Shown: positions 40,184 through 54,480, counted from the stretch's first letter. The stretch: 54,480 nt of DNA from a phage (GCA_018865545.1 GCA_018865545.1_3633.2); one strand, 5' to 3'. Program-made: numbers and translations. The notes: a model not told the origin generated them from the sequence alone.

Positions 40184-40785
40184 GCTATGTCTAAAACAAA
40201 ATCACGTATTGTATACCAATCATCTGTTTCAAGGTCTAGGGATGTTTTTAATTCTTCAGACTGATCATAAGGTGTTTTAAATTTAATTTTAATAACCTCT
40301 GGACCAAACTGATTAAGGAACTCATTCCTATCATCAATAATAACATCAACATCTACCCCAGCTTTATGCTTTGTTGCATAGAAAGCATGACCGGAACCAG
40401 GCTCTAAGCTGAAAAACTCTTCTGTTTCTCTTTTTAGAAAGCGCACTTTAGATGAAAAATGACCTTTCATACAATAAGAAACAAAATGATTAAAATGACC
40501 AGCTTTAGCCCATGCAGCTACTGCTTCCACTGCACCGGGGAGAGGCTTCAACTTATCGTAAAGATAAGGATCCTCCCAAAACTCATAAGGACTAAGCTGA
40601 TGCACCTTCGCAGGTGGGAAATACTTAGAAACATTGTAATACAGCATACCTTGTGGATTTGGTGGTGGTAATGATAAATCCATTTTAACACCATAAACCT
40701 TTTCCAACCACTCAATCCAAGGTGTCCCAGAATCAACAAATGTCAAATCTACATCAATTCCGATCTTAAGCGTATTCACCTTCAA
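40180..40785 (-). CDS. HAD-like hydrolase (putative 5'-deoxyribonucleotidase)
   Basis: IGIDVDLTFVD fits HAD motif I (DxDxT); C-terminal DVDVIIDDR resembles motif IV. Confidence 0.4.
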   Translation of the reverse strand: MKVNTLKIGIDVDLTFVDSGTPWIEWLEKVYGVKMDLSLPPPNPQGMLYYNVSKYFPPAKVHQLSPYEFWEDPYLYDKLKPLPGAVEAVAAWAKAGHFNHFVSYCMKGHFSSKVRFLKRETEEFFSLEPGSGHAFYATKHKAGVDVDVIIDDRNEFLNQFGPEVIKIKFKTPYDQSEELKTSLDLETDDWYTIRDFVLDIA

Positions 40786-41392
40786 AGACTCCCCCTGTTG
40801 CCAAAACGTTTTTTAAGAAATCCAATTTTTCAACAGCATTGTCATAAACCTTCCTATTGTAATACTTATTTGTTGGACGGTAATTATTAAGTTTCCGCTC
40901 ACATTCAGAAATTATGTAACGTAACCATGCATGATGGGCTTCTAGTTCAGAATCGAAAGTCCCTATATGGATAAAGCTAGGAAAATTACGACAATGTACT
41001 GCTTTCCATCTTTCTCTATTTTTAATTTTACATGTCCCAAGAAGACCACCAGATTTCGTTACCGTTTTCTCTGGGAATGGAAAACAATAGAGGATATCCT
41101 TTGGTGTGAATATGCATGTTTCTGGACTGTACAGTTGACTTTTCCTAATTAAGTAGATATCTAAGCTGTGATCTGGTTTTTTATTCTTCAGATACCATTC
41201 TTTGTAATTACTAAACACCAACCACTCATCACATACATTAAAATCGGTGTCGCCCGTCATATAGCAAAACAGAATCATTGATCGCCACGTTTTATGAGCC
41301 ATTTTAACTTTCCATACCGTTTCGCCAGGGTCATGATTATCTGTGGCGACACCACAAAACAAACCATCAACCTCAAAAGAAAAATTTTTCAT
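40766..41392 (-). CDS. AP2-domain homing endonuclease-like protein
   Basis: WKAVHCRNFPSFIHIGTFDSELEAHHAWLRYI resembles the AP2 DNA-binding domain of phage HNH/AP2 endonucleases. Confidence 0.4.
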   Translation of the reverse strand: MKNFSFEVDGLFCGVATDNHDPGETVWKVKMAHKTWRSMILFCYMTGDTDFNVCDEWLVFSNYKEWYLKNKKPDHSLDIYLIRKSQLYSPETCIFTPKDILYCFPFPEKTVTKSGGLLGTCKIKNRERWKAVHCRNFPSFIHIGTFDSELEAHHAWLRYIISECERKLNNYRPTNKYYNRKVYDNAVEKLDFLKNVLATGGVFEGEYA

Positions 41393-41991
41393 TATTCAAC
41401 CCCAGCAGCAGTAAAGACGAACCACTTATGGATTGACTTGGCACAGTCTTCCATTTTACCATCAATATTCTCGAAATCTCTTTCGTACCCTCGGATCCCG
41501 TCTAAATAGAGCCAATTACGACTATCATTGCCCCAGTCACAACCTTCTCTGTGAATACGTGCCAAGAAGAATTTACCACCAGTTTCATAAGCATAGTTGG
41601 AAAGCTCAAGGATCTCTTCCTTAAAACCACCATCTGAAAAAACAACCAACCATGCCTCTTGATGGTTTTTCTTTAAATTCTCTACAGCAGCTTTGCCAAA
41701 AGCATTCTGTCCGAAAATTGGTTTAATCACATTCTCTGAACAATGGATCATCCATTCTCGTGGGGAGACATGTTCTCCATCAATTTGCAGGTAAGGACAA
41801 GGTTTTTCTTTGTATCTACGGTCATAAAGACTGTTCCACAAATCTTTTGAGACTCCAGCAGATCTGATAGCAACTTCAAAAAGTAGTTTCTTCACTTCTT
41901 CATGAAACACACCAGAGATGTTCTCACTCAAATAAGAACAAATAGCGTCTTTTCCAGCACCTGGTGGTGCATTTAAAACAAGAATATGCAT
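41392..41991 (-). CDS. deoxynucleoside monophosphate kinase (P-loop)
   Basis: MHILVLNAPPGAGKDAICSYL P-loop resembling phage dNMP kinases. Confidence 0.55.
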   Translation of the reverse strand: MHILVLNAPPGAGKDAICSYLSENISGVFHEEVKKLLFEVAIRSAGVSKDLWNSLYDRRYKEKPCPYLQIDGEHVSPREWMIHCSENVIKPIFGQNAFGKAAVENLKKNHQEAWLVVFSDGGFKEEILELSNYAYETGGKFFLARIHREGCDWGNDSRNWLYLDGIRGYERDFENIDGKMEDCAKSIHKWFVFTAAGVE

Positions 41992-42005
41992 TCAATCTCC
42001 CACAA

Positions 42006-42980
42006 TCAGATGATATTAACAAGGGTATTAGCCATCTCTTCTTTGGTGCGGATATTACGTCTGTCACGCATAACAGATCCACAACATTCGCAACGGTAAG
42101 CCTGAAATTTTGATAGATATGTTGTTCCTACCTTACCATCCATAACTGACAAATTATCAGAATTGCATCTTACGCAACGAAGTTCAACATTATCATCCGG
42201 CTCATTAAAAAGTGTAACGTTAGGATGTTTTTTCATAAAAGGCCTTACTTTAAGGTAAATACCTTCCAGTGTTGGAATATCACCAATGTTATAATATTCC
42301 ATTTCCTCAAATGCCTTAACATCTCCGTGGCAGCATCGTTTCCACAAAGAGATTCCTTCGTGGTGTCTTTTACGAGCCTCTAGTTGAAAGTAGTTACACG
42401 CAGCCTCTAAAGAGTTAGAAGGTAACGAAAAAGCATTCTTTAACTCTGCAAGAGTATCAATAACAATATATGGCGAGGGGGGGTTCATACCATGAAAAGC
42501 AAATCTTTGGTTTGCCCATCCTTTATCAAATTTAGCATTGTGTGCAATGAAAATATCACACTCATCCAAAATGTGCCACAAATCTTCCACAAGCTCTCTG
42601 TCATCATGGATATCTGTTTTAAATGTTTCGTAGTCAGGTAATTTACGACTTAATATTGCTGGATTGTCTAACCACTTCCCTGCCCATGTCAACATATATG
42701 GCTCGCTCTCTACGTGAGACGGAGAGATGTTTTCTTTAATTCTTCTAAATACCCAAGCCAACGTTGGTGCTACTTCCACATCACCCAGAAAAATTTTTGC
42801 CCCCGGCTTTTTAGTGAGGGTCTCCACAATCTGTTTTGATGCCTCTGTATTCTGAGCGTGAGCTTTAAGAACTAACCTGATATGTGACTCTTTACTTTCT
42901 TTTCCCAGATACCGACGAGCTATTTCTCTGTTGCTCAAACCTTTAGACTTTAACTCTAGAATTTCTTCTGCACTAAGCAT
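42006..42980 (-). CDS. DnaQ-like 3'-5' exonuclease with N-terminal HTH and C-terminal zinc ribbon
   Basis: FLGDVEV (Exo I-like), FIAHNAKFD (Exo II), CVRCNS..CECCGS zinc ribbon; N-terminal LSNREIARRY HTH-like. Confidence 0.45.
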   Translation of the reverse strand: MLSAEEILELKSKGLSNREIARRYLGKESKESHIRLVLKAHAQNTEASKQIVETLTKKPGAKIFLGDVEVAPTLAWVFRRIKENISPSHVESEPYMLTWAGKWLDNPAILSRKLPDYETFKTDIHDDRELVEDLWHILDECDIFIAHNAKFDKGWANQRFAFHGMNPPSPYIVIDTLAELKNAFSLPSNSLEAACNYFQLEARKRHHEGISLWKRCCHGDVKAFEEMEYYNIGDIPTLEGIYLKVRPFMKKHPNVTLFNEPDDNVELRCVRCNSDNLSVMDGKVGTTYLSKFQAYRCECCGSVMRDRRNIRTKEEMANTLVNII

Positions 42981-43192
42981 TACACCTCTCTAACAAACTC
43001 GATGATATCGTTAACAGCAAAATCACGGACATCACCCTTGTCGATATCGTATGCCCTCATTAGCCATTGAGGTTTTTTGTGATAAGGGGTCGTTCCAAAC
43101 CACAATTTTGGGTCTAAAACATTTCTGTAGCCACACTTACCTTTCCAGTTTTTATAATAAAAACGTAGAGGGTTATTCAAATCTCCAGCCAA
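42980..43192 (-). CDS. hypothetical protein
   Basis: ORF track. Confidence 0.4.
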   Translation of the reverse strand: MAGDLNNPLRFYYKNWKGKCGYRNVLDPKLWFGTTPYHKKPQWLMRAYDIDKGDVRDFAVNDIIEFVREV

Positions 43193-43472
43193 AATTCTCC
43201 TCCGTCTGCCTCACAAATTCCTTCAAATACAAGATAATACTATCCTGTTTCTTAGTTGTTGAAGGAATGTCTAATCCAAGGTCTTGTTTTGCTCTTTCGA
43301 TGATCTTTTCATTAGAGCATCTTCTTAAGAACTTTAGCATGTCATCCTTATATGAGGGATGTAAGGGGTAACTGCTAAAATCCCTCTCAAGATAATCTGC
43401 AAGGTTTCTTAATGCTGTGGACAAAGATGTTTCTGTGTGAAGTGACACATACTTCATCCAAGCCTTCAACAC
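43173..43472 (-). CDS. hypothetical protein; frame is open a further 276 nt upstream with an HNH-like motif but no canonical start
   Basis: ORF track start is GTG43472; upstream in-frame translation reads ...NPCLDHDHFEGKCRGVLSQCVNTFEGY with no ATG/GTG/TTG until the stop at 43749-43751. Confidence 0.35.
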   Translation of the reverse strand: MLKAWMKYVSLHTETSLSTALRNLADYLERDFSSYPLHPSYKDDMLKFLRRCSNEKIIERAKQDLGLDIPSTTKKQDSIILYLKEFVRQTEENFGWRFE

Positions 43473-43696
43473 GTACCCTTCGAAAGTGTTAACACACTGA
43501 CTAAGGACTCCACGGCATTTCCCTTCAAAATGGTCATGATCAAGACAAGGGTTGCGAAGTGGCTCACCTAAAACAGGATCAAGACCATTCTGGTCTAAGA
43601 TTAGATATTCTCTAAACTCAGCTATTTGCTTAGGATTTTTTAACCAGAGACTATTGTTGAGAGGGACGCTTACTGCTTTCTTCCTTGGTTTACGTT

Positions 43697-44326
43697 TTAC
43701 TTTCTGTTGTTTTTGTCTCTTTCTTGGGATAATTCCTCCAAGAATTTTTTACCTATTAAGTAAGCATCAGCATAATCTGATTTACCAGCAGCCAATGTAA
43801 TACCATCTAACCAACCAGGACAAACACAATCAACAGCCCGTATCATGTGTGATTTTTCCATCTTTACTTTACGAGATGAGTATACCTTTTTCCCAGTCTT
43901 TTTGTCAAGTCTTTCTTTAACTATTTCTCTATCTTTTTCTGGGAGTAAGTTTCTGGCAAAAGACTTTAGAGAAGTTGGTGGTATTTTATGTATATTATCA
44001 AGCCACTCAGGTGATTTATCACATAAGGCATAGACAATGCAATGGAACAAACCTGCCAAATCACGCGTCGCATTCCCTACAGATCCGAAACTCAAATCCT
44101 CCATCACATACTTATCTATCTTGTACTTATCAACTAATTCCAAGATCTTTTGAACTATGTGTCTGATTTGTTCGTAGACTGTATCGTAATAAACGACATC
44201 TTTATTTTTCTTAGACCTGCTGGAGTTAGATCCTGTTCTAATCATCTCTCTATATATGGGAACACCATGCTCCCATATAACAACAGCGCAGTGGGAGATT
44301 GACTGGTCAACCGACATCAGTCGCAT
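43697..44326 (-). CDS. RuvC-like Holliday junction resolvase (tentative)
   Basis: N-terminus MRLMSVDQSISHCAVVIWE resembles the RuvC/YqgF first strand with catalytic Asp. Confidence 0.35.
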   Translation of the reverse strand: MRLMSVDQSISHCAVVIWEHGVPIYREMIRTGSNSSRSKKNKDVVYYDTVYEQIRHIVQKILELVDKYKIDKYVMEDLSFGSVGNATRDLAGLFHCIVYALCDKSPEWLDNIHKIPPTSLKSFARNLLPEKDREIVKERLDKKTGKKVYSSRKVKMEKSHMIRAVDCVCPGWLDGITLAAGKSDYADAYLIGKKFLEELSQERDKNNRK

Positions 44327-44636
44327 CTAAACCCCCGCCAAAATCTTCAACAGCCTGATCTTTAAATAAAACTAAACCACATTCTAAATCACCATGCAAC
44401 ACACTTGTCAGAAGAACTAGTCTTTCTCCTTCTACCAACTCACAATCTTCTAAAATCTGTGCAGCAAATATTTTATCCTTGTTTATAAAATCATCCTTAA
44501 AAAGGATATGATCACCATTCTCATCTTCTACTAATTTCCACTGCCCTGTACCAACCAAGAACTTCGGTTTCAAAGACGATACAGAAAGTGCTTGGGAGTC
44601 CCTCATCACAGCTTCTATAATCATCACATCTATCAT
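44307..44636 (-). CDS. hypothetical protein
   Basis: ORF track. Confidence 0.4.
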   Translation of the reverse strand: MIDVMIIEAVMRDSQALSVSSLKPKFLVGTGQWKLVEDENGDHILFKDDFINKDKIFAAQILEDCELVEGERLVLLTSVLHGDLECGLVLFKDQAVEDFGGGLDATDVG

Positions 44637-45766
44637 AGTACCCCTACCCTTTTCAATTCTGTTGCTAGTGTTGTTTTATCATTGGGGTGTCTTTTCATGT
44701 AAACCATCTGGAAAATTACAGATGCCCATTGACCAGCACTCATCTTTTTAAGGCTTCCATCCCAAGATGTAAATTCAACCCCGTTTGGAAACCATGCCTT
44801 ATACTGGTCAACAATTGCTTCCCACATCTCTTTTTCTGTTCCAAGATGCCCGATCAAATTGAAAGCCGCAGTATCCCCAAATCTTCCGTTTATATCAAAG
44901 CACTGGTATGGTTTAATATTGTCAGAAATATCACCACAAAGCATCTGATAACCGAAGAACTTTTTGCCCCAGCCTTTAACCTTATTACCTTCCATCCATA
45001 TTTCACCCATTGAGTCATCAATCAGCATTGGGGTTGGATGTTTCCACTGCTTCTCTCCGTTATCGCGCATCGTATCAAATAGCAGACCTGGTGTTCCTTT
45101 CTGATCCTTATCGAAGGATGCTATCAGGAAATTAAACTTACCTGTCTTCTTATAATTTTCCCACCCTGTGTACATTAGTACGGATAAGTAATCATCTGCT
45201 TCAACACCATTGATGACTTTTGCATTGTACTTCTTCTTAACGTAATCTCGCGTTTCCTGTAAAAGCAACGGCCTGAGTAGATCTTCCCTATTACCTTTAT
45301 ATCTCTCTGGGGCAGGAAGCATAAGACGGAAATTATTCTCGCCACCAAGAACACCAACACCTTGCTTGCTACTAATTTCAAGATGATCAAAAATAGCATT
45401 GATCTTCATTTTGAGAAGATGAAGGCAATTCTCAACAGGCTCCGGTGTTTGGATATCCTCAACAAGGAAGTCTTCCCTCGTCCAAGGTGTAAATGATTTT
45501 CCTGCGGCCTTTGCTTTCATTTCCATATTGGCATTTTGGTCTTTTAGCCAACCGCCTACAACTTTTTTGGTTGATCCCCAAAACTCTGTGCGATTACGAA
45601 ACTCTTTAGATTTCCCAGATTTAATATGCGTCGCTCGGATGGTTCTTTTTTCAGAACCAGCAGCCGATACGTAACATGTTTGATCTAAATCTAAGACAAT
45701 TACACAATCATTTGTGATTTTATCTTTCCAGTTTTTATCGTATGGATACCCCACAACACCTCTCAA
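44633..45766 (-). CDS. 5'-3' exonuclease / flap endonuclease (FEN family)
   Basis: VINGVEADDYLSVL (GxEADD motif) and LCGDISDNIKPY (H3TH GDxSDNI motif). Confidence 0.6.
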   Translation of the reverse strand: MRGVVGYPYDKNWKDKITNDCVIVLDLDQTCYVSAAGSEKRTIRATHIKSGKSKEFRNRTEFWGSTKKVVGGWLKDQNANMEMKAKAAGKSFTPWTREDFLVEDIQTPEPVENCLHLLKMKINAIFDHLEISSKQGVGVLGGENNFRLMLPAPERYKGNREDLLRPLLLQETRDYVKKKYNAKVINGVEADDYLSVLMYTGWENYKKTGKFNFLIASFDKDQKGTPGLLFDTMRDNGEKQWKHPTPMLIDDSMGEIWMEGNKVKGWGKKFFGYQMLCGDISDNIKPYQCFDINGRFGDTAAFNLIGHLGTEKEMWEAIVDQYKAWFPNGVEFTSWDGSLKKMSAGQWASVIFQMVYMKRHPNDKTTLATELKRVGVL

Positions 45767-46200
45767 GTATTACCTAAATAATCTTTCAAATAGCTAACGT
45801 CAAGTTCCCATTCCTGACGCTTACTTCTCTCACGATACAGAGCAAACGCCTCTTCAACATATTTTTCGGCTACATGTTGAGGGATGTTGTTAACTTTCAT
45901 GAAATGCCTCAAAGCTATATGCCCTCTACCTCGTAAACTAGCCAAACCAATATGTTTAACTTCGTGACACGATGGGCATAGTGCAATAAGACCTTTCAGG
46001 GTGATCTTACCATCTTCAAAATCCCATACCTCGTGGCATTCAACAGGGTGTTTATGTCCTTTGCCACCGCAGATTTCACATTTATAACCTGCTTCTGCAT
46101 AACATTTCTTTCTTACCTTGTCCCATTCTGATTTTGATAAGTAAGAACGTAAATTGTTGAACCATGCCGTTTTAGGTACTAGTTCAATAGTTAATCTCAT
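45763..46200 (-). CDS. HNH endonuclease
   Basis: CEICGGKGHKHPVECHEVWDFEDGKITLKGLIALCPSCHEVKH HNH zinc-finger motif. Confidence 0.7.
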   Translation of the reverse strand: MRLTIELVPKTAWFNNLRSYLSKSEWDKVRKKCYAEAGYKCEICGGKGHKHPVECHEVWDFEDGKITLKGLIALCPSCHEVKHIGLASLRGRGHIALRHFMKVNNIPQHVAEKYVEEAFALYRERSKRQEWELDVSYLKDYLGNT

Positions 46201-46378
46201 TCCGATTTCTCCCGAAGTACATATGCAAAATTCTCATCCAACTGGGCATTGGTAAAAGAGCCAGCAGAGAACATATCATTAGTGCCTTCAAATCATAATC
46301 TTGACAAACAAGCCATCCAATGCTTACCAAACATAAAGACAGGATAAAACTTAACAACACTATTAACATATTTTTCAT
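46184..46378 (-). CDS. small membrane protein
   Basis: ORF track; hydrophobic. Confidence 0.35.
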   Translation of the reverse strand: MKNMLIVLLSFILSLCLVSIGWLVCQDYDLKALMICSLLALLPMPSWMRILHMYFGRNRNEINY

Positions 46379-46398
46379 AACAATCTATGTTCTATGTT

Positions 46399-46596
46399 TT
46401 AATGAAATATTCTTTTTGATGGGCAGCTTCCAGCACCTTCTTTAACCACTGTTTCTGTACTATGCCCATCGCTATAAATACAGACTTTGGAATCACCATC
46501 ACGATATTCTGCCTCAAGGCTCAAGGTGTTTGTGGTAGAAATTGCTAGAGGACTAAACAGAAGTGAGGACAGGAGGATAATGTTTTTAAATTTCAT
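46399..46596 (-). CDS. small secreted protein (signal peptide)
   Basis: ORF track 46399..46632; start moved to ATG46596 behind AGGTGG RBS; MKFKNIILLSSLLFSPLAIS signal-like. Confidence 0.4.
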   Translation of the reverse strand: MKFKNIILLSSLLFSPLAISTTNTLSLEAEYRDGDSKVCIYSDGHSTETVVKEGAGSCPSKRIFH

Positions 46597-46605
46597 TTTT
46601 ACCAC

Positions 46606-46637
46606 CTTTGAAAAAGCCCGATGAAAGCTCATCGGGC
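46606..46637 (-). terminator. rho-independent terminator
   Basis: On the minus strand, hairpin GCCCGATGAGCTTTCATCGGGC followed by TTTTT. Confidence 0.55.
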
Positions 46638-46647
46638 ATACGGTATA

Positions 46648-47538
46648 TTATTTACCTGTAGGTAATGTTACAAACGGGGCTTGTGCTCCACTAGTCATAT
46701 ACACAGGTGTTACACCATTCCATTTATTAATTGCTTCAAGCTGCATAATCTCTGGATTTTTACGCAGAGCAGCACCACGTAGTTCAATAGATTCTGCATC
46801 ACCTTTGGCAATCAAGATTTTAGCATCTGCTTCGCCTTGTGCTTGGAGTCGTTTAGACTCAGCCTCGCCACGAGCCGCCTCAATACGTTTCTGGGCTTCA
46901 GCTTTCACTTGCTGAATTTCGTTTTCACGAAGCAGTGCTTTTTGTGTCGCTTCGATTTTATCATTAATGGAAGCAGTCACCTTTGGCGGATACACAAGAT
47001 CGTCAGTATAAGAAAGTTTCACAAGCACAATACCAACAGGATCAAGTTTTTGTTTCAGATGCTTGGTTACGCTCTCAAGCAGTTGTGTTTTTCCATCACC
47101 AGTCAGTGTACCGATATCCATTGAACCAGCTTCTTTGATCAAAGCATCAGAGATATTCTGGCGAATGTTTACCTCTGTAATTTCTTGTACACCTTTACGG
47201 TACGTCTGGAAAATAGTCGTTACTTTAGAACGATCAACATAATATTCAACACCAATTTTCGCAGAAACTGTCATAGAGTCTTTTGTCTGGAAATTGAATG
47301 GTTGGTCATAGTTATGCAACTGGTTAAAAGTCGGGAACTGATAAATCTCTTCGTTCCAAGTCAGCCAGTACTTACCTACCCCAACCTCTTGTTGCTGGAC
47401 ACCTTTTTCATCACCGTACAGATCAACTTTAACGCCAACGTAACCTGCTGGAACGGTTGCACGCTCACAACCTGTGAGACCAATTGCAGAGACTGCAAGA
47501 ATACCTGCAAAAATAACTCGTTTAATAGATTTAAACAT
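46648..47538 (-). CDS. SPFH/band-7 (prohibitin-like) lipoprotein
   Basis: Lipobox-like LTGC near the N-terminus; C-terminal coiled coil EIQQVKAEAQKRIEAARGEAESKRLQAQGEADAKILIAKGDAES typical of band-7 proteins. Confidence 0.7.
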   Translation of the reverse strand: MFKSIKRVIFAGILAVSAIGLTGCERATVPAGYVGVKVDLYGDEKGVQQQEVGVGKYWLTWNEEIYQFPTFNQLHNYDQPFNFQTKDSMTVSAKIGVEYYVDRSKVTTIFQTYRKGVQEITEVNIRQNISDALIKEAGSMDIGTLTGDGKTQLLESVTKHLKQKLDPVGIVLVKLSYTDDLVYPPKVTASINDKIEATQKALLRENEIQQVKAEAQKRIEAARGEAESKRLQAQGEADAKILIAKGDAESIELRGAALRKNPEIMQLEAINKWNGVTPVYMTSGAQAPFVTLPTGK

Positions 47539-47551
47539 TAAACCAATCTCC

Positions 47552-47764
47552 TTACTTTTTACGTTTTCCAGTTTTCTTCTTAGAAGACTTGCCTAAGAAG
47601 ACCTTACGCCCCCAGACAAAAACAATCATCGGAGACACAAACAACATTGCAAAACCACACATTACCATCAGTGTGTCTTTTGCAGACAGCATTGTTGGTA
47701 CTACAAATCCAATGATGACACAGATAAAAACAAGAATACCAACGCAATTTAAATACGTCTTCAC
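47552..47764 (-). CDS. small membrane protein (possible NfeD-like partner of the SPFH protein)
   Basis: ORF track; two hydrophobic helices and a Lys-rich tail; immediately upstream of the SPFH gene. Confidence 0.4.
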   Translation of the reverse strand: MKTYLNCVGILVFICVIIGFVVPTMLSAKDTLMVMCGFAMLFVSPMIVFVWGRKVFLGKSSKKKTGKRKK

Positions 47765-47766
47765 AA

Positions 47767-48084
47767 TTATCCCTCACGACCAAACAGAATATCCACCTCA
47801 GCCATTTGCTCAACCTTTTCCTCAAGGTCTTTTCGCTTCTTACCCGCTTGGTATTGTCGGTCAAATTCTGCATTTATCATTGCATTGATAAATTTAGGGT
47901 CGTATCCGTGGCTTTCTTTTTCTACGGATACGATATCTTTAAGCATGTCACTTGCGTCTTTTTTCATGATGCGAGCTTCAACACCTTCCAAGATGACTTT
48001 TTTCAGTCGATCGCGCTCAACAGGATCAGAAGGTAAAGTATTTTTCAGTTCAATTTTTGTTTTAGGCATACGTGGCATTTTCAT
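47767..48084 (-). CDS. hypothetical protein
   Basis: ORF track. Confidence 0.45.
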   Translation of the reverse strand: MKMPRMPKTKIELKNTLPSDPVERDRLKKVILEGVEARIMKKDASDMLKDIVSVEKESHGYDPKFINAMINAEFDRQYQAGKKRKDLEEKVEQMAEVDILFGREG

Positions 48085-48142
48085 CTCCTCTGTCTACGTA
48101 TAAATTTAATTATAAAAATTTTATATGGTTTGTCAAGGGGTA

Positions 48143-48349
48143 TTAAATAAAATCTACACCAATTAAATCACCATCACAACGAGCAATATTATCTGCCACA
48201 CTGCTAAGTTCATAGACATAGCAAGTATGAGCATATTTCTTAGCGCCACCCCAACGGCGCTTTACAACAAAGCGTACAACACACTTCTGAAACAGTGTTT
48301 CTGTACCACCGCGTTGTTCGATCTTCTTGATAAGGTCTTCGATATTCAC
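48143..48349 (-). CDS. hypothetical protein
   Basis: ORF track. Confidence 0.4.
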   Translation of the reverse strand: MNIEDLIKKIEQRGGTETLFQKCVVRFVVKRRWGGAKKYAHTCYVYELSSVADNIARCDGDLIGVDFI

Positions 48350-48361
48350 TTTTTACCACAC

Positions 48362-48389
48362 TTCCAAAACAAGCCCCTTATAAGGGGCT
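48362..48389 (-). terminator. rho-independent terminator
   Basis: On the minus strand, hairpin AGCCCCTTA/TAAGGGGCT followed by TTGTTTT. Confidence 0.5.
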
Positions 48390-48404
48390 ATTGTTATATA
48401 TTGA

Positions 48405-49094
48405 TTACACTTTAATAATCGGTTCAACAAAGGTAATTGGTTTCATAATTTTACCATTACCATCCATAAAGGCAACACGTTCACCGACCTGAACATGGAT
48501 TACAGAATTATAGCGTCCTTTTGAACGGCGTTCAATCTCTTTGCATTCAAACTCCAACATCTCCAGTTCTTTATCCTTGTAGTCAGGATATTTAACAAGT
48601 AGTTGTGTGATTGTTGGGAACTTAGAGTCGTTAGAATTAAGAACCTCTTCCATATTATACCCAAGATTGATATCCAATTTATAGCATAAAGCCACAACTT
48701 GTTTCAAAATCTCAGCATAATCAGAGATTTTCAACTTATCTTTATGTACCAAGTCAAGCAAACTACCGATTTGCAACTCAACCGTGTCTGAGGGAACCAT
48801 GCATGACTCCCATTTTTCAGTGTCCCACTGCACCAAACGCAAAGCGTAAGAGCTTACGACAAAAAGATCACAGGCTGCATCAATAACCGCTGCCTTGTCG
48901 GATGATGATAAGGCTTCAATAAGCTCAGAAAGCTCCTCTTTAATAAGATTTGTTTGTAGTTTAATATCTGTTGACATTCCTCCACGACCAATCCTTGCTA
49001 CCTCATTCCATTTGGCAACACGATGACCATATGCAATCATGTTATCAGGCTTGCTCATGGTTTCAAGTGTGGAATACATATTTTTTAAATTCAT
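48405..49094 (-). CDS. MazG-like nucleotide pyrophosphohydrolase (tentative)
   Basis: IKEELSELIEAL...DAACDL resembles the MazG EExxE...ExxD motif. Confidence 0.4.
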   Translation of the reverse strand: MNLKNMYSTLETMSKPDNMIAYGHRVAKWNEVARIGRGGMSTDIKLQTNLIKEELSELIEALSSSDKAAVIDAACDLFVVSSYALRLVQWDTEKWESCMVPSDTVELQIGSLLDLVHKDKLKISDYAEILKQVVALCYKLDINLGYNMEEVLNSNDSKFPTITQLLVKYPDYKDKELEMLEFECKEIERRSKGRYNSVIHVQVGERVAFMDGNGKIMKPITFVEPIIKV

Positions 49095-49103
49095 CTCTTC
49101 TCC

Positions 49104-49475
49104 TTAATTTACTGCATCTGGTATATGATCACCATCTGGTTGATCACGAATTATTCTTAGAGGTAACAAAGCACCATTTTTTCCTGTGAACAGACATTTA
49201 TCTGCATAGCTACCATTCTTGTACCAAGAGTATGATGTATTAACTTTATAAGTCATACCATCAAACTGGCAAGCAACAGTGTTAATTATTGGCCTAATAA
49301 GACAAAATGTAAGGATACCAATAACAACAAACCATGCGATAATAATCTTGCGAATATTTGGTTTTACCCAATCAATAAAATCATCTAATTTATCCCGTCT
49401 GAACCTATATGCCAGATACACACATACAGAGAACAGTATAGTAGTCAGTAGAACGAACACCCAATACCAAATCAT
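49104..49475 (-). CDS. membrane protein
   Basis: ORF track; N-terminal and internal hydrophobic helices. Confidence 0.45.
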   Translation of the reverse strand: MIWYWVFVLLTTILFSVCVYLAYRFRRDKLDDFIDWVKPNIRKIIIAWFVVIGILTFCLIRPIINTVACQFDGMTYKVNTSYSWYKNGSYADKCLFTGKNGALLPLRIIRDQPDGDHIPDAVN

Positions 49476-49487
49476 AATTATTAACCT

Positions 49488-50777
49488 TTAATATATAGGA
49501 TCCCACGTCAAAGAATCTACCTCACGAACACATTTGCCAACAGGAAATTGCGGAACACCGTCATCGGTCCTTGCTTGGTATGTAAAAGTTATATACTTGC
49601 CGATAAGTTTTTTCATATTCTCTTGTGAGCGTTCTTCGTGTGTGCCTCTCATCTTACAGTTAAATTGTGTACCATCCTTCTCAGCACACAACAGGACACC
49701 TTCTCCATTCTTATCCTCAAAGGAATCAAGAACTCTGGCCTCACCATCCTGAAACAATTTCCACTTTTGAAGATCAGACGATCTTTGTCCAAACTCATAC
49801 TTTCCGTGAAAGTTCCTTATTACAACACCCTCATAACCTGCTTCCATAAACTCCTTGATGAGCATTTTAACACGATCCTCACCAGACACTATTGCTCCGT
49901 GCACCACTTTAATCAGGTTATAAGGCCATGTATATTCAGAGACTTTCTGTAAATTATTAAACCTACACTTGTTTGTGTCAGAAGACATCCATGGTGTGTC
50001 ATCTTCCGAAGGGATATCGAAAATATGATATTCTAAGTCTAAACTTGAATAACCACAATACTTATTAATATTTTTCTCTGGTTTCTTTGTGATAGGATGT
50101 TCTAACCCTTCGGAGTCTTTCCAAAATTCATCACCATTGTTAATTGCTTTTTCAAATCGCTTTATGTCTGATTGATAGTCTTTTTCTATCTCACACTCTA
50201 TCTCTTCTGGTGTTCTCCATTTCTTAGCCAAAGAGACTATTTTCTGGAGACTTAACCCATGAATATACAACTCACCATCAAACATTTTCAACCCTGTCTT
50301 TTTGGCTAGCTTAGACATCTGATCAAGCAATTGGCCTTGTACAGGATATGTTTTATTGCCACGACTATTAAACACAGGTACACCATCATCACCAACAAGA
50401 ACAAGTGCTCTGACACCATCGAGTTTTGGTTGAACATGCACAGGGTACACTAAAGAGCTTTTCCTTTTAATAGCATCATGTGCAAGCATTGGTGAGAAAT
50501 CTTGTGTTTTTGTAAGATCATCCTTTGATACACGATACCCAAGGCGTACTTGTTTTTCCCACTTAGATTTTGCCTCCAAAACAGCTTGTTCTGTATCAGT
50601 TGTCTCATTTTTCTTACCGATGTTTTTGGCAAAGCATTTTGTGCGTTTATACTGCATTTTACCGTTTTCTTTACCAAACTCAACAACAGTTTCTGATCCA
50701 TCTACCCACACATTCCACACTTGATATGTACCATCCCTGTTTATGGCGTACAGTGTTGGGAGGTTATTTTCAAGCAT
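49488..50777 (-). CDS. ATP-dependent DNA ligase
   Basis: Motif I KLDGVR, motif III FDGELYIHG, motif IV EGVVIRN, motif V DLQKWKLF; start set to ATG50777 behind GCGAGGT RBS. Confidence 0.7.
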   Translation of the reverse strand: MLENNLPTLYAINRDGTYQVWNVWVDGSETVVEFGKENGKMQYKRTKCFAKNIGKKNETTDTEQAVLEAKSKWEKQVRLGYRVSKDDLTKTQDFSPMLAHDAIKRKSSLVYPVHVQPKLDGVRALVLVGDDGVPVFNSRGNKTYPVQGQLLDQMSKLAKKTGLKMFDGELYIHGLSLQKIVSLAKKWRTPEEIECEIEKDYQSDIKRFEKAINNGDEFWKDSEGLEHPITKKPEKNINKYCGYSSLDLEYHIFDIPSEDDTPWMSSDTNKCRFNNLQKVSEYTWPYNLIKVVHGAIVSGEDRVKMLIKEFMEAGYEGVVIRNFHGKYEFGQRSSDLQKWKLFQDGEARVLDSFEDKNGEGVLLCAEKDGTQFNCKMRGTHEERSQENMKKLIGKYITFTYQARTDDGVPQFPVGKCVREVDSLTWDPIY

Positions 50778-51555
50778 TAAATACCTCGCTTGTGACAACA
50801 GATTTTCCTTCAAGGTGATTCTCTACCAACTCGATAAGTTTTTGGTTGCTGAATGCTTCAACTGCTCCACAGCGCATTTGGTACACACCATATTTATCAT
50901 ACTGCTCTTGTTCAAAGTAATTAATCGCTGGGTTTATTACAACGAGTTTAATACCTCGTTTTGCGATTGCATGTAGCAATTCCCAGTTAAAGTCGATAAC
51001 TTGGTTAGAGCAGCCAACCAGAAGTACAAGGTCTTGAGTATTCAAGTCATCAAGCATGGTAAACATGTCCTGATAAAGTGGTGCATTCTCACCGAAAAAT
51101 ACCACATTTGGCTTGCACCACCAGTAATCATCAGGATCAACAGCCGTATACCCAACATCAATCACACGCTTAGGAAACTCTTCACCATTCTGTACAACAA
51201 GCTCTTTTAGAAAACCATGCACATGGAGAATATCTTTCTTTTCAATGCCAGCGCGTTCAAGCAGATCGTCAACATTTGTTGTAAGATTACGTACTTGACC
51301 AGGATAACGCTTATACCATTCTGCAACACGCAGATGTGCCATGTTGGGATGGACAGTCTTCAATTCCTCACGACGTTTGTTATAAAATTCGTGTGTTTTG
51401 TGATAGAAATTGCCACGAAATGCATGAATATTACATACTTCTTCAAGATCATATTCGTCCCAGAGGGCTTTACCTGAAGAAGTATCTGTACGGAATGTAC
51501 GAATACCGCTTTCTGTTGACATACCTGCACCACTAATCACAAGTAATCGACGCAT
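50770..51555 (-). CDS. Sir2-family NAD-dependent deacetylase / ADP-ribosyltransferase
   Basis: LVISGAGMSTESGIRTFR matches the Sir2 GAGxSxxSGIPxFR motif. Confidence 0.75.
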   Translation of the reverse strand: MRRLLVISGAGMSTESGIRTFRTDTSSGKALWDEYDLEEVCNIHAFRGNFYHKTHEFYNKRREELKTVHPNMAHLRVAEWYKRYPGQVRNLTTNVDDLLERAGIEKKDILHVHGFLKELVVQNGEEFPKRVIDVGYTAVDPDDYWWCKPNVVFFGENAPLYQDMFTMLDDLNTQDLVLLVGCSNQVIDFNWELLHAIAKRGIKLVVINPAINYFEQEQYDKYGVYQMRCGAVEAFSNQKLIELVENHLEGKSVVTSEVFNA

Positions 51556-51563
51556 ATAACCAC

Positions 51564-51971
51564 CTATTGTAATTTTAAAGAGTTACGTAAACGTGCTTCT
51601 TGACGATCACGAATAAACTGCGGGACATCATGAATGCTTTCGTTACCATGATAATTTTCCACAACTACAGATGTTACATCATAGCAGTAGTTTTCTGCTA
51701 AGTCAAGATAAGGTTTCAACTCTTTCGCAGAAGTTGTTGTGTTTGAAACAATAATCTTTTCAACTTCATTCTGCATGTGGAGTTCTACTTTGTCACGACA
51801 CCATTGATGAGCTTTGTGGACATTTTCTTCTTTCCACTCATACACACCGTCTTCGGTGTAATGAAATTGGTCAGCTTCACACACAGGCCAACGACCATCA
51901 TCAGACAACTCTTTAGCAAGAGTTGATTTTCCTGACCCAGAGACACCACGTAAAATAAATAACTTTTTCAT
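51564..51971 (-). CDS. P-loop polynucleotide 5'-kinase-like protein
   Basis: MKKLFILRGVSGSGKSTLAKEL resembles the N-terminus of the T4 Pnk kinase domain. Confidence 0.55.
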   Translation of the reverse strand: MKKLFILRGVSGSGKSTLAKELSDDGRWPVCEADQFHYTEDGVYEWKEENVHKAHQWCRDKVELHMQNEVEKIIVSNTTTSAKELKPYLDLAENYCYDVTSVVVENYHGNESIHDVPQFIRDRQEARLRNSLKLQ

Positions 51972-51981
51972 CAGTTTTCCT

Positions 51982-52314
51982 TTAGTATTGGTGGCGGTAT
52001 AATTTTATACCAAGAATATTTTCAAAATATTCTTTCGCCAACATGAATTTGTTCACAGCAGATGGGTTAGAGCTATGTACGTGAATTTCTTTAAGATTCA
52101 TAAACTTACCATCATGAAGCTCACGTTCAACATAGAGGAAAGCATCGTAACCTTCCTCATCAGAACCCAAATCATTATCAAAATGAATTGAATCAATGTC
52201 ACTATCACTCATAAATTTTAGTAATGAGTAAAAGCTAGAGAGATTCTTACACCATAAAGCATTAGGGTAGCCATAATCTACTGGATTTCGTAGATCATCC
52301 AACCATAGTTTCAA
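51982..52314 (-). CDS. hypothetical protein
   Basis: ORF track; between the kinase and RNA ligase genes. Confidence 0.45.
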   Translation of the reverse strand: MKLWLDDLRNPVDYGYPNALWCKNLSSFYSLLKFMSDSDIDSIHFDNDLGSDEEGYDAFLYVERELHDGKFMNLKEIHVHSSNPSAVNKFMLAKEYFENILGIKLYRHQY

Positions 52315-53243
52315 ATTGTGCCTCCGAAAAAATCCTCGATGATTTCACGACGGAATTGTTCATGCAAACATTCCCAATGTTCTTTAGAATAGTTATCACG
52401 CAAGTAGTTTAAAAGGTTATAATACTCTTCGTCAACTTTCTTCTTAGCTTCTTCTGGGTTTCCCCAAATCATATCCCACTTGTTCTTACCGCCACGCATC
52501 AAAAATTTCTTCGCCAAATAGTGTGGTGATTTTATCTTCAAGAGAAGATCTTGCTGTCCTGTAGCATCACGTACAACAAACCCTTCATGTTTGCATTCTT
52601 TAGACATTTTCAGGATGTCTGAAAAGTGCATATTTATGTAAATCTCTGGTCGTTTAAAACCGAACTCTTTTGCGATAAGATCCAGAGCTTTTTCACTAAG
52701 CATAGAAGTTAATTTGTTTTTATGAAATCGGACACCAATCAAATACACACCTGCCTTTTCTGGTACAATGTGTGGGTCTGAAGGAGCGCAAATCTCAAAG
52801 ATAAATGTTGTCTTTGGTTCTTCCACACATGATAACAACATTGGCAAATTAGTACATTCTTCCATGATCATACCTTTTGCAAGTTTTGCAAAATCGGAAT
52901 CTAAAGTTCCTGTTGTTGAAACAATTAGCTCACCATTGTATGAGCTTACTGCTGCCATGAAGCCATTAACTTTACGTGCTGCATTCACAACCATATCTTT
53001 TGGAAGATCAGTACCGTTCTCTAAATGATTGAAAATCTTTGTAAAAGGCCAAACAATAATGTTGTCATCACTGTCCACAACCATACCACGGCAATCAAGT
53101 AAGCGACTGTCTTGATCCCACAAGTTTTCCCAGAAAACTTTGTTACTGTATTTCAAAACAGACAAACCTTTAAACTCACCACTGGTATAAGTCTTCTTTT
53201 TGACAAGGCCTTTTGCTACTAAATCTTCAACATTAAATTTCAT
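52311..53243 (-). CDS. RNA ligase (covalent nucleotidyltransferase, KxNG type)
   Basis: Motif I KVNGF, motif III IFEIC, motif IV EGFVVRD, motif V LLLKIKSPHY; KxNG rather than KxDG favours an RNA ligase. Confidence 0.55.
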   Translation of the reverse strand: MKFNVEDLVAKGLVKKKTYTSGEFKGLSVLKYSNKVFWENLWDQDSRLLDCRGMVVDSDDNIIVWPFTKIFNHLENGTDLPKDMVVNAARKVNGFMAAVSSYNGELIVSTTGTLDSDFAKLAKGMIMEECTNLPMLLSCVEEPKTTFIFEICAPSDPHIVPEKAGVYLIGVRFHKNKLTSMLSEKALDLIAKEFGFKRPEIYINMHFSDILKMSKECKHEGFVVRDATGQQDLLLKIKSPHYLAKKFLMRGGKNKWDMIWGNPEEAKKKVDEEYYNLLNYLRDNYSKEHWECLHEQFRREIIEDFFGGTI

Positions 53244-53440
53244 TTGTCTTCACCGTCACTATTGTATGATTGTTTATTAAATGACTCAATTATACATGTT
53301 GATCGTCTTGCGTCAACAGATTGGCTTGTTAAATCTTTAGCAACAACCAGCTTTTCCACATCATCTTTTTTGATGGATCCGTAAGCACCAGAATCCATCA
53401 TGAAGAATATTTTATCTTCTGTTATCTTGTGTATTTTCAT
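53240..53440 (-). CDS. hypothetical protein
   Basis: ORF track. Confidence 0.35.
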   Translation of the reverse strand: MKIHKITEDKIFFMMDSGAYGSIKKDDVEKLVVAKDLTSQSVDARRSTCIIESFNKQSYNSDGEDK

Positions 53441-53461
53441 TCATAAAATCTCAATGATTAT

Positions 53462-54040
53462 TCAATGCCCATCAGCAGTGAAAACGTCTTTTTCCATACA
53501 CATTTGGTATGCTTCTGGCAAACCCAAAATTCTCCCATGTACATCCCAACCAACATCAAGAATCCGTCCTTTCGCACTGTAAGATCCGTGGCAATGACCA
53601 TGCAAGAACACAGACCCATAGTGAGATTTATTCCACGCTGCAAACGGGTAATGGCTCATACAAATTTTTTGTTCATAATCGTTAAATTCGTAATAATCGC
53701 ACACATCATGACCACGTTTTTTGAATGTTTTAATCGCATCAAAATTGTCATGATTACCTTTGACAAGGACGATATGCCCAACAAGCTCATCAAGAATTTC
53801 TTCAAGTCTTTTAATAACTTGCTTGCCATGACCGAAACAGAAATCACCAAGCACAAAAGTCACAGTATCGGCATCTGCGCCGTGGTTAAATTTCACTGTG
53901 AGGTCTTGGTTCATTTGTTCAACGGTTTTGTACAAATCACCACGAAAACGTTTTGAACTCTCAAAGTTAAGGATGTTTTTATGCCAGTAATGTAAATCAG
54001 ATGTTACACGGTATTTGGTTCCCATTTCTCTCTCCCACAC
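53462..54040 (-). CDS. calcineurin-like metallophosphoesterase (Ser/Thr phosphatase family)
   Basis: Motifs SDLHY (DxH), LGDFCFGHG (GD), VKGNHD (GNHD), LHGHCH. Confidence 0.75.
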   Translation of the reverse strand: MWEREMGTKYRVTSDLHYWHKNILNFESSKRFRGDLYKTVEQMNQDLTVKFNHGADADTVTFVLGDFCFGHGKQVIKRLEEILDELVGHIVLVKGNHDNFDAIKTFKKRGHDVCDYYEFNDYEQKICMSHYPFAAWNKSHYGSVFLHGHCHGSYSAKGRILDVGWDVHGRILGLPEAYQMCMEKDVFTADGH

Positions 54041-54050
54041 ACAACAAAAA

Positions 54051-54446
54051 TCACTGTCGCTCTAACAAATCTTCTGCTGGATAAGCATACAGCATGTATT
54101 CCCAACCACGATGATAGTGTCTGTGCTGCCAGTTGATTAATTTTAGGCACACAATGTTCACCACGTTCCTGTCCCCATGGATAAAAACACAAGTCTCAAG
54201 GATTGACTTTCCAAACTCAACATGACTGTCAAGATACAGTTTTGTGTTGTATCTTTTTTCAGCATCTAGCATGATCTGTTTCAGAGCCAGAAATGCCTCA
54301 CGACACACAGATTTTTCATCAGAAATCATTTTGATATTCAAGCATTTCCCCCACACAGGCAACCACGTAAATCGTGTCTGATCACCACAACACAATCGGT
54401 TTGAAACAAACCTGTTTGACACACAACTGAATCGTCGTAGTGTCAT
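54051..54446 (-). CDS. hypothetical protein
   Basis: ORF track. Confidence 0.45.
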   Translation of the reverse strand: MTLRRFSCVSNRFVSNRLCCGDQTRFTWLPVWGKCLNIKMISDEKSVCREAFLALKQIMLDAEKRYNTKLYLDSHVEFGKSILETCVFIHGDRNVVNIVCLKLINWQHRHYHRGWEYMLYAYPAEDLLERQ

Positions 54447-54480
54447 GCCAAAACACAGACAGACATGATACGACGAAGAT

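Follow-up and report, generated by a model that had tools for sequence, protein, structure and literature searches.

The window analysed here is a stretch of 54,480 nucleotides from a phage of the rV5 group (subfamily Vequintavirinae), which shares 93.9% nucleotide identity with phage TH18. We identified on its minus strand, at the coordinates given in a preliminary description of this DNA, all five ORFs of a compact cluster that runs from 54025 to 51564 in the order metallophosphoesterase, 66-aa ORF, RNA ligase of the Rnl1/Trl1 type, 110-aa cREC protein and small P-loop kinase (Table 1). That description had proposed three adjacent, co-oriented genes with the signatures of a phosphoesterase, a covalent nucleotidyltransferase and a kinase, followed directly by Sir2 and a DNA ligase. 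The ORFs, motifs and family matches of the three genes are all confirmed here, Pfam matches identify the two genes that follow, and the Pfam and PHROG matches of the module genes are far beyond chance.

Table 1. Genes and other features of the RNA ligase locus.
Feature	Coordinates	Strand	Details
Conserved gene of an uncharacterised family	54051..54446	-	upstream of the phosphoesterase; phrog_7684 E 3e-35, residues 37-128
Calcineurin-type metallophosphoesterase	53462..54025	-	187 aa from ATG 54025; PF00149, phrog_547
66-aa ORF	53240..53440	-	stop overlaps ligase start by 4 nt; phrog_20147 E 1.1e-17, unannotated
ATP-dependent RNA ligase, Rnl1/Trl1 group	52311..53243	-	310 aa; PF09511 RNA_lig_T4_1
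cREC (cyclic-phosphate processing receiver) protein	51982..52314	-	110 aa; TTG start after GGAGG
Stand-alone P-loop kinase, polynucleotide-kinase clade	51564..51971	-	135 aa; AAA_33, phrog_505
Sirtuin (Sir2 family)	50770..51555	-	261 aa; PF02146 E 2.9e-26, phrog_2162 E 4.9e-102
ATP-dependent DNA ligase	49488..50813	-	PF01068, PF14743; within the module's transcription unit
MazG-like nucleotide pyrophosphohydrolase	48405..49094	-	PF01503 E 6.9e-6, phrog_671 E 1e-23; last gene of the unit
Terminator-like GC-rich hairpin	48372..48389	-	closes the minus-strand unit

Neighbouring genes overlap by 4 nt at their start and stop codons or are separated by gaps of 8-21 nt, and the run of genes ends at the hairpin, AGCCCCTTATAAGGGGCT, which is followed by a T-rich tail and lies 16 nt past the MazG stop codon. 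We predict from this layout that one early unit, with co-transcribed and translationally coupled genes, reaches from at least position 54446 to the terminator at 48372. The module probably extends past the kinase through the Sir2, DNA ligase and MazG genes to this terminator; the sirtuin, T4-like ligase, cREC, kinase, MazG and calcineurin-like phosphoesterase all lie within the minus-strand unit 54025..48405. Beyond the terminator is a perfect TTGACA-16-TATAAT (48136..48109). At the other end, the gene upstream of the phosphoesterase probably encodes a product of about 95 aa, as homologues of 95-145 aa occupy the same place in 12 related loci.

The phosphoesterase ORF is open from a GTG at 54040 (53462..54040). 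The real start is likely the ATG at 54025, which is preceded by GGGAGAGAG and agrees with the annotation of a 564-nt gene in phage TH18. The protein matches Pfam Metallophos (E 6.8e-8, 33.6 bits against a curated cutoff of 21.5) and phrog_547 (E 3.5e-44), and contains the motifs SDLH, GD, GNHD, H125 and GHCH. Across 22 diverse homologues, residues D10, H12, G60-D61, G90-N91-H92, H125, G143-H144 and H146 are invariant, and with them all of the metal-binding motifs DxH, GD, GNH(D/E), H and GHxH. We predict from these sequence features that it is a 3'-end healing enzyme for 2',3'-cyclic, 3'- or 2'-phosphates. The preliminary description pointed out that the phosphatase is a metallophosphoesterase and not of the HAD type; such an enzyme is present, but the arrangement is not new, as bacterial Pnkp also includes a calcineurin-type metallophosphoesterase. 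The only close solved structure is that of the uncharacterised Aquifex protein aq_1665 (1xm7, E 1.3e-23), and the only other profile matches are GpdQ (2.8e-4) and 6unc, a 'Metallophos domain-containing protein' (E 0.0031). No member of the Pnkp/lambda-phosphatase subfamily was reached by the phosphoesterase profile in the PDB. Both this and the lack of a characterised close structural relative were counted against a role in RNA healing and sealing.

Two small ORFs inside the module had been described as unknown, which holds only for the 66-aa ORF. It has a match to an unannotated PHROG but none in Pfam, is labelled 'hypothetical' in TH18 and is present in only 3 of the 88 ligase loci described below. 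The other matches cREC_REC (PF20274; E 1.7e-15; score 57.9 bits, cutoff 27). Among 14 homologues, W4, D6, D7, D46, N47, L49, G50, H80, S82, N83 and P84 are invariant, including the receiver-like acidic positions D6, D7 and D46, and D48 is conserved in at least 90%. The cREC profile search found no related solved structure. What cREC does has so far only been predicted (PMC7824862, PMC9503650), and on that prediction this protein would be a metal-independent 2',3'-cyclic phosphodiesterase and a fourth enzyme of the module.

The putative sealing enzyme matches RNA_lig_T4_1 (E 7.4e-18; score 65.6 bits, cutoff 28.3) and contains the nucleotidyltransferase motifs KVNG (K91), FE150, E220-G and K236-I-K238. 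In 82 ligases of 34-98% identity, K91-V-N-G94, E150, E220-G221 and K236-I-K238 are invariant. Single-sequence PDB searches were uninformative for both the ligase (noise only) and the kinase (weak P-loop matches only, gluconokinase among them), so family profiles were needed. With its family profile, the ligase has T4 Rnl1 (2c5u, E 7.7e-11) as its sole significant match in the PDB. Affiliation with DNA ligases, raised as a possible objection, was not observed: the protein groups only with tRNA ligases (T4 Rnl1 and fungal Trl1), far from DNA ligases. Its R52, K69 and F71 align with R54, K75 and F77 of the T4 N-terminal subdomain, which are reportedly essential according to mutagenesis by the Shuman laboratory. 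R52 and K69 are invariant, and position 71 is F in 77 of the 82 sequences and Y in 5. The motif Ia lysine is missing from the ligase, where T111 stands opposite T4 K119; we count this against a healing-and-sealing role. The corresponding 'KHS' of Trl1 is an insertion in hhalign relative to the ligase family. Orthology to T4 RnlA (NCBIfam equivalog TIGR02308) is not indicated, the score being 26 bits, far below the cutoff of 242.

The ligase family also aligns with the ligase domain of yeast Trl1 (hhalign E 2.7e-5, 30% identity over 154 columns), for which the yeast sequence was checked only against the residue numbers in PMC6379707. In this alignment, H158 corresponds to Trl1 His193 (Cth His227) and N93 to Asn116 (Cth Asn150), the ligands of a sulfate that mimics the 2'-phosphate (PMC6379707, PMC11404444). 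H158 lies about 9 residues past the motif III Glu and N93 within motif I, as in the 2'-phosphate site of Trl1-LIG/Rnl6, whereas T4 Rnl1 has Ile and Asp at these positions. The ligase also conforms to the Trl1 type in its C-terminal domain. K246 and R250 are found at +8 and +12 past motif V, compared with +9 and +12 for R334 and R337 of Cth Trl1. In the C-terminal part hhalign aligned only motif IV and neither motif V nor the C-domain, so the correspondence of K246/R250 to the Trl1 RxxR is positional only. N93, H158, K246 and R250 are invariant in all 82 ligases. The conserved His and Asn are a fresh lead, and fit the Tpt1-like action proposed for the sirtuin.

The kinase contains the P-loop GVSGSGKST and matches AAA_33 (E 1.4e-9) and phrog_505 'polynucleotide kinase' (E 3.8e-11). 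Its family profile finds full-length matches in the PDB only to Clostridium thermocellum Pnkp (4gp7, 2e-12), Pnkp1 (4xrp, 2.4e-10), T4 Pnk (1ly1, 1.9e-10) and the tRNA kinase PSTK (3adb, 2e-8), and matches the remaining kinases over the P-loop alone. The top Foldseek matches of an AF2 model (pLDDT 93) are those of the profile search, and fungal Trl1-type kinases are also among the nearest relatives by both profile and fold. The concern that this might be an unrelated nucleotide kinase is thus answered by its grouping with polynucleotide 5'-kinases, and we predict from sequence that it is a 5'-OH RNA kinase. G9-x4-G14-K15-S16-T17 and D34 align with K15, S16 and D35 of T4 Pnk, D34 with the general-base Asp (T4 D35, Cth Pnkp D38), and G12, G14, K15 and D34 are invariant in the family.

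The kinase departs from T4 Pnk at several positions. The acceptor-binding Arg (T4 R38, Cth R41) is absent, T4 R38 aligning with H37, as is the lid Arg (T4 R126), where E111 is aligned instead; both R38 and R126 are essential in T4 Pnk. At the position of T4 R122/Cth R116, where most family members have Arg, the kinase studied here has Y107. The missing R38 and R126 counterparts and Y107 were each counted against healing and sealing. The family has conserved residues of its own (R8, H55, N77-T78 and Y88), and H108 and H114 recur in its lid segment 'HGN...H.VP'.

Directly 3' of the kinase, the sirtuin retains in alignment with E. coli CobB the motifs GAGMS..SGIRTFR (GAGxS..SGIxxFR), NVDD and H113-G114. 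It lacks the four-cysteine zinc module, with only one Cys between HG and KPNVVFFGE. Iyer et al. (2022) proposed it as an analogue of KptA/Tpt1 and part of the system (PMC9503650), and we consider it a possible NAD+-dependent member of the module. PADLOC gave no defence-system match for the module proteins apart from weak P-loop matches, and a role of the sirtuin as a defence-type NADase effector was rejected. The DNA ligase may belong to the repair module. MazG is named among the components of the neighbourhood type described earlier (PMC9503650 sec. 3.7.3). Sir2, DNA ligase and MazG could owe their adjacency simply to inheritance within one phage lineage, which would speak against a shared role in RNA repair.

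The ligase is found in 737 phage records. We compared 88 ligase loci from 8 GenBank phages (7 lineages) and 80 IMG/VR contigs, and found ligase, kinase and phosphoesterase together in 69. Individually, a kinase is present in 82 loci (at most 3 kb from the ligase in 80) and a phosphoesterase homologue in 72. In 11 loci, the kinase and ligase are fused into full-length proteins of 421-432 aa, and in some a HAD 'Swiss-army-knife RNA repair' phosphatase adjoins the ligase. Sir2 occurs in 13 loci and MazG in 16, all of the latter also having Sir2 and/or cREC; 49 loci have a DNA ligase homologue no more than 8 kb from the RNA ligase. Among 525 unclassified ORFs from 49 representative loci we detected no further widely shared neighbour family, the largest cluster covering 5 loci, and the 10 of the top neighbour clusters that were scanned by Pfam include neither KptA nor 2H.

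Given the family and fold membership, conserved catalytic residues, gene linkage and fusions documented above, we infer substrates, activities, an order of steps and a role for the sirtuin. The operon is probably a phage heal-and-seal system for RNA, most likely tRNA. The metallophosphoesterase would heal the 3' end, probably after cREC has opened the cyclic phosphate, and the small Pnk-clade kinase would phosphorylate the 5'-OH. The Rnl1/Trl1-type ligase would then adenylate itself on K91, transfer AMP to the 5'-phosphate and seal the break. Transposon insertions in the homologous genes of phage Bas54 are tolerated when the host is E. coli K-12 (10.1101/2025.11.20.689424 Extended Data Table 8), and such dispensability on a laboratory host is as expected for a conditional counter-defence function. 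ARAGORN detected no tRNA genes in the window, which we count against the heal-and-seal system. Many database entries name the ligase for 'tail fibre attachment', a label transferred from T4 gp63 that finds no support here and was rejected.

Alternatively, the RNA repair module may run an NAD+-dependent pathway of the fungal and plant type, a reading we consider unlikely. The cyclic phosphate would be opened to a 3'-OH,2'-phosphate by cREC (or the phosphoesterase), the ligase would need this 2'-phosphate like Trl1 and leave it at the junction, the zinc-less sirtuin would remove it with NAD+ like Tpt1/KptA, and ADP-ribose by-products would be cleared by MazG or the phosphoesterase. The hypothesis has been published by Iyer et al. 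(PMC9503650), and it gains from the Trl1-like H158 and N93, the near-RxxR spacing of K246 and R250 and the placement of cREC and Sir2 immediately beside the ligase and kinase. However, Sir2 is not found within 8 kb in 75 of the 88 loci, and cREC is likewise absent from 75, yet the ligase residues are invariant there too; in loci without Sir2, host KptA would need to complete the repair. Each of the two also occurs without the other (Sir2 in L017-L019, cREC in L002, L010 and L011). Furthermore, the K246/R250 match is unaligned by hhalign, the Trl1 query was checked against published residue numbers only, and we know of no sirtuin that acts on RNA 2'-phosphates. It is conceivable, if doubtful, that the phage ligase family is the bacterial-virus counterpart of the fungal and plant tRNA-splicing ligase, recognizing a 2'-phosphate via N93, H158, K246 and R250, and that the operon assembles a whole eukaryote-type pathway from unrelated parts. 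In that case cREC or the metallophosphoesterase may be the cyclic phosphodiesterase, the mini-Pnk the kinase, and the zinc-less sirtuin an NAD+-dependent 2'-phosphotransferase.

Two further explanations dispense with RNA repair. The kinase and phosphoesterase could heal DNA ends (3'-phosphate and 5'-OH) for the nearby DNA ligase during DNA repair or replication, by likeness to T4 Pnk or mammalian PNKP. T4 Pnk acts on both DNA and RNA, the unit described here includes a DNA ligase, one is found within 8 kb in more than half of the loci, and the phosphoesterase weakly matches the ligase-associated PdeM family (E 0.001, far below cutoff). Nevertheless, we judge this highly improbable: fusions of the kinase involve the RNA ligase and never a DNA ligase, the RNA ligase is directly flanked by kinase and phosphoesterase in most loci, and the DNA ligase is missing from some loci and otherwise lies at a distance of 0.3-4.4 kb on one side or the other. 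The other recurrent neighbours are cREC and the HAD 'RNA repair' phosphatase. It is also very unlikely that the region is merely an island of early genes serving separate nucleotide, NAD+ and anti-defence functions, such as a sirtuin modifying host proteins, a nucleotide kinase and a phosphoesterase degrading signalling nucleotides, whose adjacency reflects no pathway. A Prs-like and Nampt-like pair in 35 of the 88 loci and a Macro-domain gene in some suggest that the region collects NAD+-related genes. The first 9 kb of TH18 contain no Prs/Nampt-like genes. Iyer et al. name the kinase only 'a nucleotide kinase' (PMC9503650), and 424 distinct unrelated neighbour families point to a highly plastic region. 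The triad of ligase, kinase and phosphoesterase outlasts this plasticity, down to ligases of 34% identity; members of the triad are found fused, and the full-length relatives of the kinase all act on polynucleotides or tRNA.

It is now recognised that defences cutting tRNA, among them PrrC, RloC, Retron-Eco7 and Cas13, are widespread. The classic way for a phage to counter them is RNA repair, to our knowledge shown only for T4, and we encountered no biochemical or genetic work on the ligase-kinase-phosphoesterase triad in our literature searches. With five enzymes in one compact operon of an E. coli phage, and with transposon libraries available for Bas54, the system is directly testable. One can ask which defences are neutralised, whether cREC is a cyclic phosphodiesterase and whether the sirtuin acts on RNA 2'-phosphates. 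If the Trl1-like reading were true, host KptA would clear the junction 2'-phosphate in phages without a sirtuin. This would provide a natural substrate for bacterial Tpt1/KptA and bear on the old puzzle of its retention in bacteria.

The arrangement described here is already predicted in the literature, independently of this analysis, as type 2 of the sirtuin-centred phage RNA-repair neighbourhoods (Iyer, Burroughs, Anantharaman & Aravind 2022, Viruses 14:1977; PMC9503650 sec. 3.7.3), a computational description with Escherichia phage V5 (rV5) and Proteus phage Mydo as prototypes. The gene set is the same, with no essential difference, the calcineurin-like phosphoesterase being an optional part of the type; here all genes are in one unit with co-oriented MPE-orf66-LIG-cREC-KIN-Sir2, whereas rV5, FV3 and Bas54 carry the kinase and phosphoesterase genes in divergent orientation relative to the ligase.

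The logic of 3' healing, 5' phosphorylation and Rnl1-type sealing is also that of T4 Pnk and Rnl1, which counter the anticodon nuclease PrrC. The ligase shares with T4 Rnl1 the R/K/F residues of the N-terminal subdomain and motifs I, III, IV and V, but is shorter (310 versus 374 aa), lacks K119 and has N and H in place of D101 and I167. The kinase belongs to the clade of T4 Pnk but stands alone at 135 aa without a HAD phosphatase and without R38/R126 counterparts, the phosphatase being a separate metallophosphoesterase. Bacterial Pnkp systems (C. thermocellum Pnkp/Hen1 and Capnocytophaga Pnkp1-Rnl-Hen1) combine the same three chemistries, and no PDB entry matches our kinase better than the Cth Pnkp kinase domain. 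They differ in that the activities are here in three separate genes, no Hen1 methyltransferase was seen, and the phosphoesterase profile does not extend to the Pnkp/lambda-phosphatase domain. Compared with the fungal and plant Trl1 (LIG-KIN-CPD) and Tpt1, the proteins are separate, the candidate cyclic phosphodiesterase is cREC or the metallophosphoesterase rather than a 2H enzyme, a sirtuin takes the place of an NAD+ enzyme of the Tpt1/KptA fold, the RxxR is K-x3-R and the motif Ia SKHS lysine is absent. What the cluster has in common with that pathway is a ligase in which both the His and the Asn of the Trl1 2'-phosphate site are conserved, together with a kinase, a predicted cyclic phosphodiesterase and an adjoining NAD+-using enzyme.

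All genes of the module lie on the minus strand, and the profile matches of their products are far above chance level. The preliminary description had proposed a split RNA healing-and-sealing module of three enzymes with Sir2 and a DNA ligase next in line; all the motifs it cited for the three enzymes are present in the sequence, and both downstream genes were found with matching Pfam domains.

Features of the module and its downstream boundary (feature, coordinates, strand, Pfam match with E-value or remark)
Metallophosphoesterase, 187 aa	53462..54025	minus	Metallophos, 6.8e-8; ORF open from GTG 54040
66-aa ORF	53240..53440	minus	
RNA ligase, 310 aa	52311..53243	minus	RNA_lig_T4_1, 7.4e-18
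cREC protein, 110 aa	51982..52314	minus	PF20274, 1.7e-15
P-loop kinase, 135 aa	51564..51971	minus	AAA_33, 1.4e-9
Sir2	50770..51555	minus	SIR2, 2.9e-26
ATP-dependent DNA ligase	49488..50813	minus	DNA_ligase_A_M, 1.9e-14
Membrane-like ORF, 123 aa		minus	between DNA ligase and MazG-like gene
MazG-like protein	48405..49094	minus	
Terminator-like hairpin	48372..48389	minus	
Sigma-70 consensus	48109..48136	minus	TTGACA-16-TATAAT

Adjacent module genes overlap by 4 nt or are spaced by 8-21 nt. A strong, GC-rich terminator-like hairpin (AGCCCCTTATAAGGGGCT, followed by a T tail) comes directly after the MazG-like gene, and downstream of it a perfect promoter consensus starts the next unit; the two signals mark a transcription-unit boundary. 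Together with the tight junctions, they suggest that the module genes form a single operon, with its promoter at or past the window's end.

The region shares 93.9% identity with its counterpart in Escherichia phage vB_EcoM_TH18 (Vequintavirinae), the closest relative that has been sequenced; in TH18 all module genes are annotated ‘hypothetical’. In 12 loci, the phosphoesterase gene is preceded by a conserved gene with no assigned function (phrog_7684; 54051..54446 in the window); as listed (131 aa) the window's ORF is probably overlong at the N-terminus, because its homologues have ~95 aa. Across the window (1..54480), GC skew changes from positive to negative near 16 kb, coinciding with the switch from plus-strand to minus-strand genes. 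The window contains no tRNA genes; in the related phages FV3 and nepoznato, a cluster of tRNA genes is found 4-5 kb away from the RNA ligase gene.

The ligase gave no match in a single-sequence PDB search, and a profile of 29 homologues matched T4 RNA ligase Rnl1 alone (7.7e-11), spanning the adenylyltransferase domain. Structural comparison placed it closest to the fungal tRNA ligase domain Chaetomium Trl1-LIG (23.0, alignment length 285), T4 Rnl1 (22.9, 251) and other fungal tRNA ligases (21.3, 287-288), followed by Rnl3 (15-16.5), Rnl5 and Rnl2 (about 12), DNA ligases (<10) and the Pnkp-type ligase (8). Thus the protein does not group with DNA ligases, and its earlier reading as an RNA ligase stands. 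The 88 loci yielded 82 distinct ligase sequences with 34-98% identity, in all of which the catalytic residues K91, E150, E220, G221, K236 and K238 and the Rnl1-type residues R52 and K69 are invariant. In TH18 (ON075799), a gene annotated ‘RNA ligase 2’ (8641..9675) lies about 9 kb beyond the point where the window ends, suggesting that the window's phage probably carries two RNA ligases.

A single-sequence PDB search with the kinase was ambiguous. A profile built from 43 sequences found full-length matches to polynucleotide or tRNA kinases only, including C. thermocellum Pnkp kinase (2e-12), T4 Pnk (1.9e-10), Capnocytophaga Pnkp1 (2.4e-10) and PSTK (2e-8), in agreement with the initial T4 Pnk-like assignment; an AF2 model (pLDDT 93) recovered the same neighbours and fungal Trl1-type kinases. 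D34 aligns with the general-base Asp. The arginines R38 and R126, essential in T4 Pnk, are absent from the family and align with H37 and E111 in the window's protein (51621..51656, 51861..51878), which also has Y107 where most relatives have Arg. The family instead conserves R8 before the P-loop, H55 and an HGN..H.VP lid. These differences point to a divergent mini-member of the polynucleotide kinase clade, with a predicted acceptor substrate.

All metal-binding motifs of the phosphoesterase are invariant. Its only close solved relative is Aquifex aq_1665, itself uncharacterised, and a profile search of solved structures did not reach the Pnkp or lambda-phosphatase domains; gene context suggests a role in RNA 3'-end healing. 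Both small ORFs had been called unknown, which holds for the 66-aa ORF, a rare gene (3/88 loci), but not for the cREC protein. Its receiver-like acidic positions D6, D7 and D46 are invariant and D48 is at least 90% conserved. Named by Aravind's group and experimentally uncharacterised according to its authors, cREC is predicted to open 2',3'-cyclic phosphates and ADP-ribose cyclic phosphate (PMC7824862, PMC9503650). The homologue in nepoznato (L002, 4718..5074) bears the name ‘putative RNA ligase and tail attachment protein’, apparently an annotation error that has spread in databases.

Ligase homologues occur in 737 phage records. Our survey covered 88 loci, 8 from annotated phages and 80 from IMG/VR, whose ORFs were searched with iterated profiles. 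A kinase lies near the ligase in 82 of the 88 loci (within 3 kb in 80), a phosphoesterase in 72 and both in 69; DNA ligase (49), MazG (16), cREC (13) and Sir2 (13) are less frequent, the last three being restricted to rV5-like and phi92-like enterobacterial phages. Neighbours outside the triad are highly variable (525 ORFs in 424 families); thus the triad is a conserved functional core, to which cREC and Sir2 are lineage-specific additions. In some loci, a HAD ‘Swiss-army-knife RNA repair’ phosphatase adjoins the ligase; some have a Macro-domain gene nearby. Prs-like and Nampt-like genes, which may constitute a phage NAD+ regeneration pathway, occur as a pair within 8 kb of the triad in 35/88 loci (including L004, L005, L007, L008, L009-L013, L015 and L017-L027). 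The pair is divergently transcribed 2-4 kb upstream in the window's closest IMG/VR relatives, and is absent from the window and from TH18 1-9000.

Persistence of the triad despite extreme neighbourhood turnover argues against the idea that these are simply early genes without a common function gathered in one island. Healing of DNA ends by the kinase and phosphoesterase for the neighbouring DNA ligase is also unlikely: it is the RNA ligase that they directly flank and with which fusions occur. Eleven loci (L047-L049, L056-L059, L062, L067, L069, L070) encode ORFs matching both profiles, with kinase N-terminal and ligase C-terminal; ten have 421-432 aa and that of L067, near its locus end, has 338 aa. 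We favor RNA repair, in which the phosphoesterase, probably with cREC, would heal the 3' end, the kinase would phosphorylate the 5' end and the ligase would seal.

This exact gene arrangement has been described (Iyer, Burroughs, Anantharaman and Aravind 2022; PMC9503650, sec. 3.7.3), with the sirtuin proposed to be KptA/Tpt1-like. Our literature search found no biochemical or host-range study of the module; by its gene arrangement, it belongs to a neighbourhood type known from computation. Homologues in the BASEL phage Bas54 carry the annotations RNA ligase, polynucleotide kinase, phosphoesterase and sirtuin; transposon sequencing in E. coli K-12 classed all four as non-essential (56/60, 33/36, 26/27 and 48/51 TA sites hit, respectively) and the gene at the cREC position as ‘intermediate’ (10.1101/2025.11.20.689424). 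The window's sirtuin, like all 13 collected homologues, keeps the NAD+ motifs and catalytic His and lacks the four-cysteine zinc module (stretch 51088..51225 of the gene).

RNA repair of the fungal type, leaving a 2'-phosphate at the junction, appears unlikely for this module. The adjoining cREC and sirtuin fit such a pathway, as do the longer structural alignment to Trl1 than to T4 Rnl1 and several ligase residues, but 75/88 loci with identical invariant ligase residues have no nearby sirtuin. In fungal Trl1, a His, an Asn and an RxxR after motif V bind a sulfate taken as a 2'-phosphate mimic and enforce the 2'-phosphate requirement (PMC6379707, PMC11404444). By hhalign, the ligase family aligns with yeast Trl1-LIG (E 2.7e-5, 30% identity, 154 columns; yeast residue numbers checked against PMC6379707), pairing H158 with His193 (Chaetomium His227) and N93 with Asn116 (Chaetomium Asn150). 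Two further residues of the phage ligases, K246 and R250, which follow motif V at +8 and +12, are likewise invariant but lie in a segment outside that alignment. The window's ligase scores far under the T4 RnlA equivalog threshold and lacks the motif Ia lysine (T4 Rnl1 K119, here T111); where it has H158 and N93, T4 Rnl1 has Ile and Asp.
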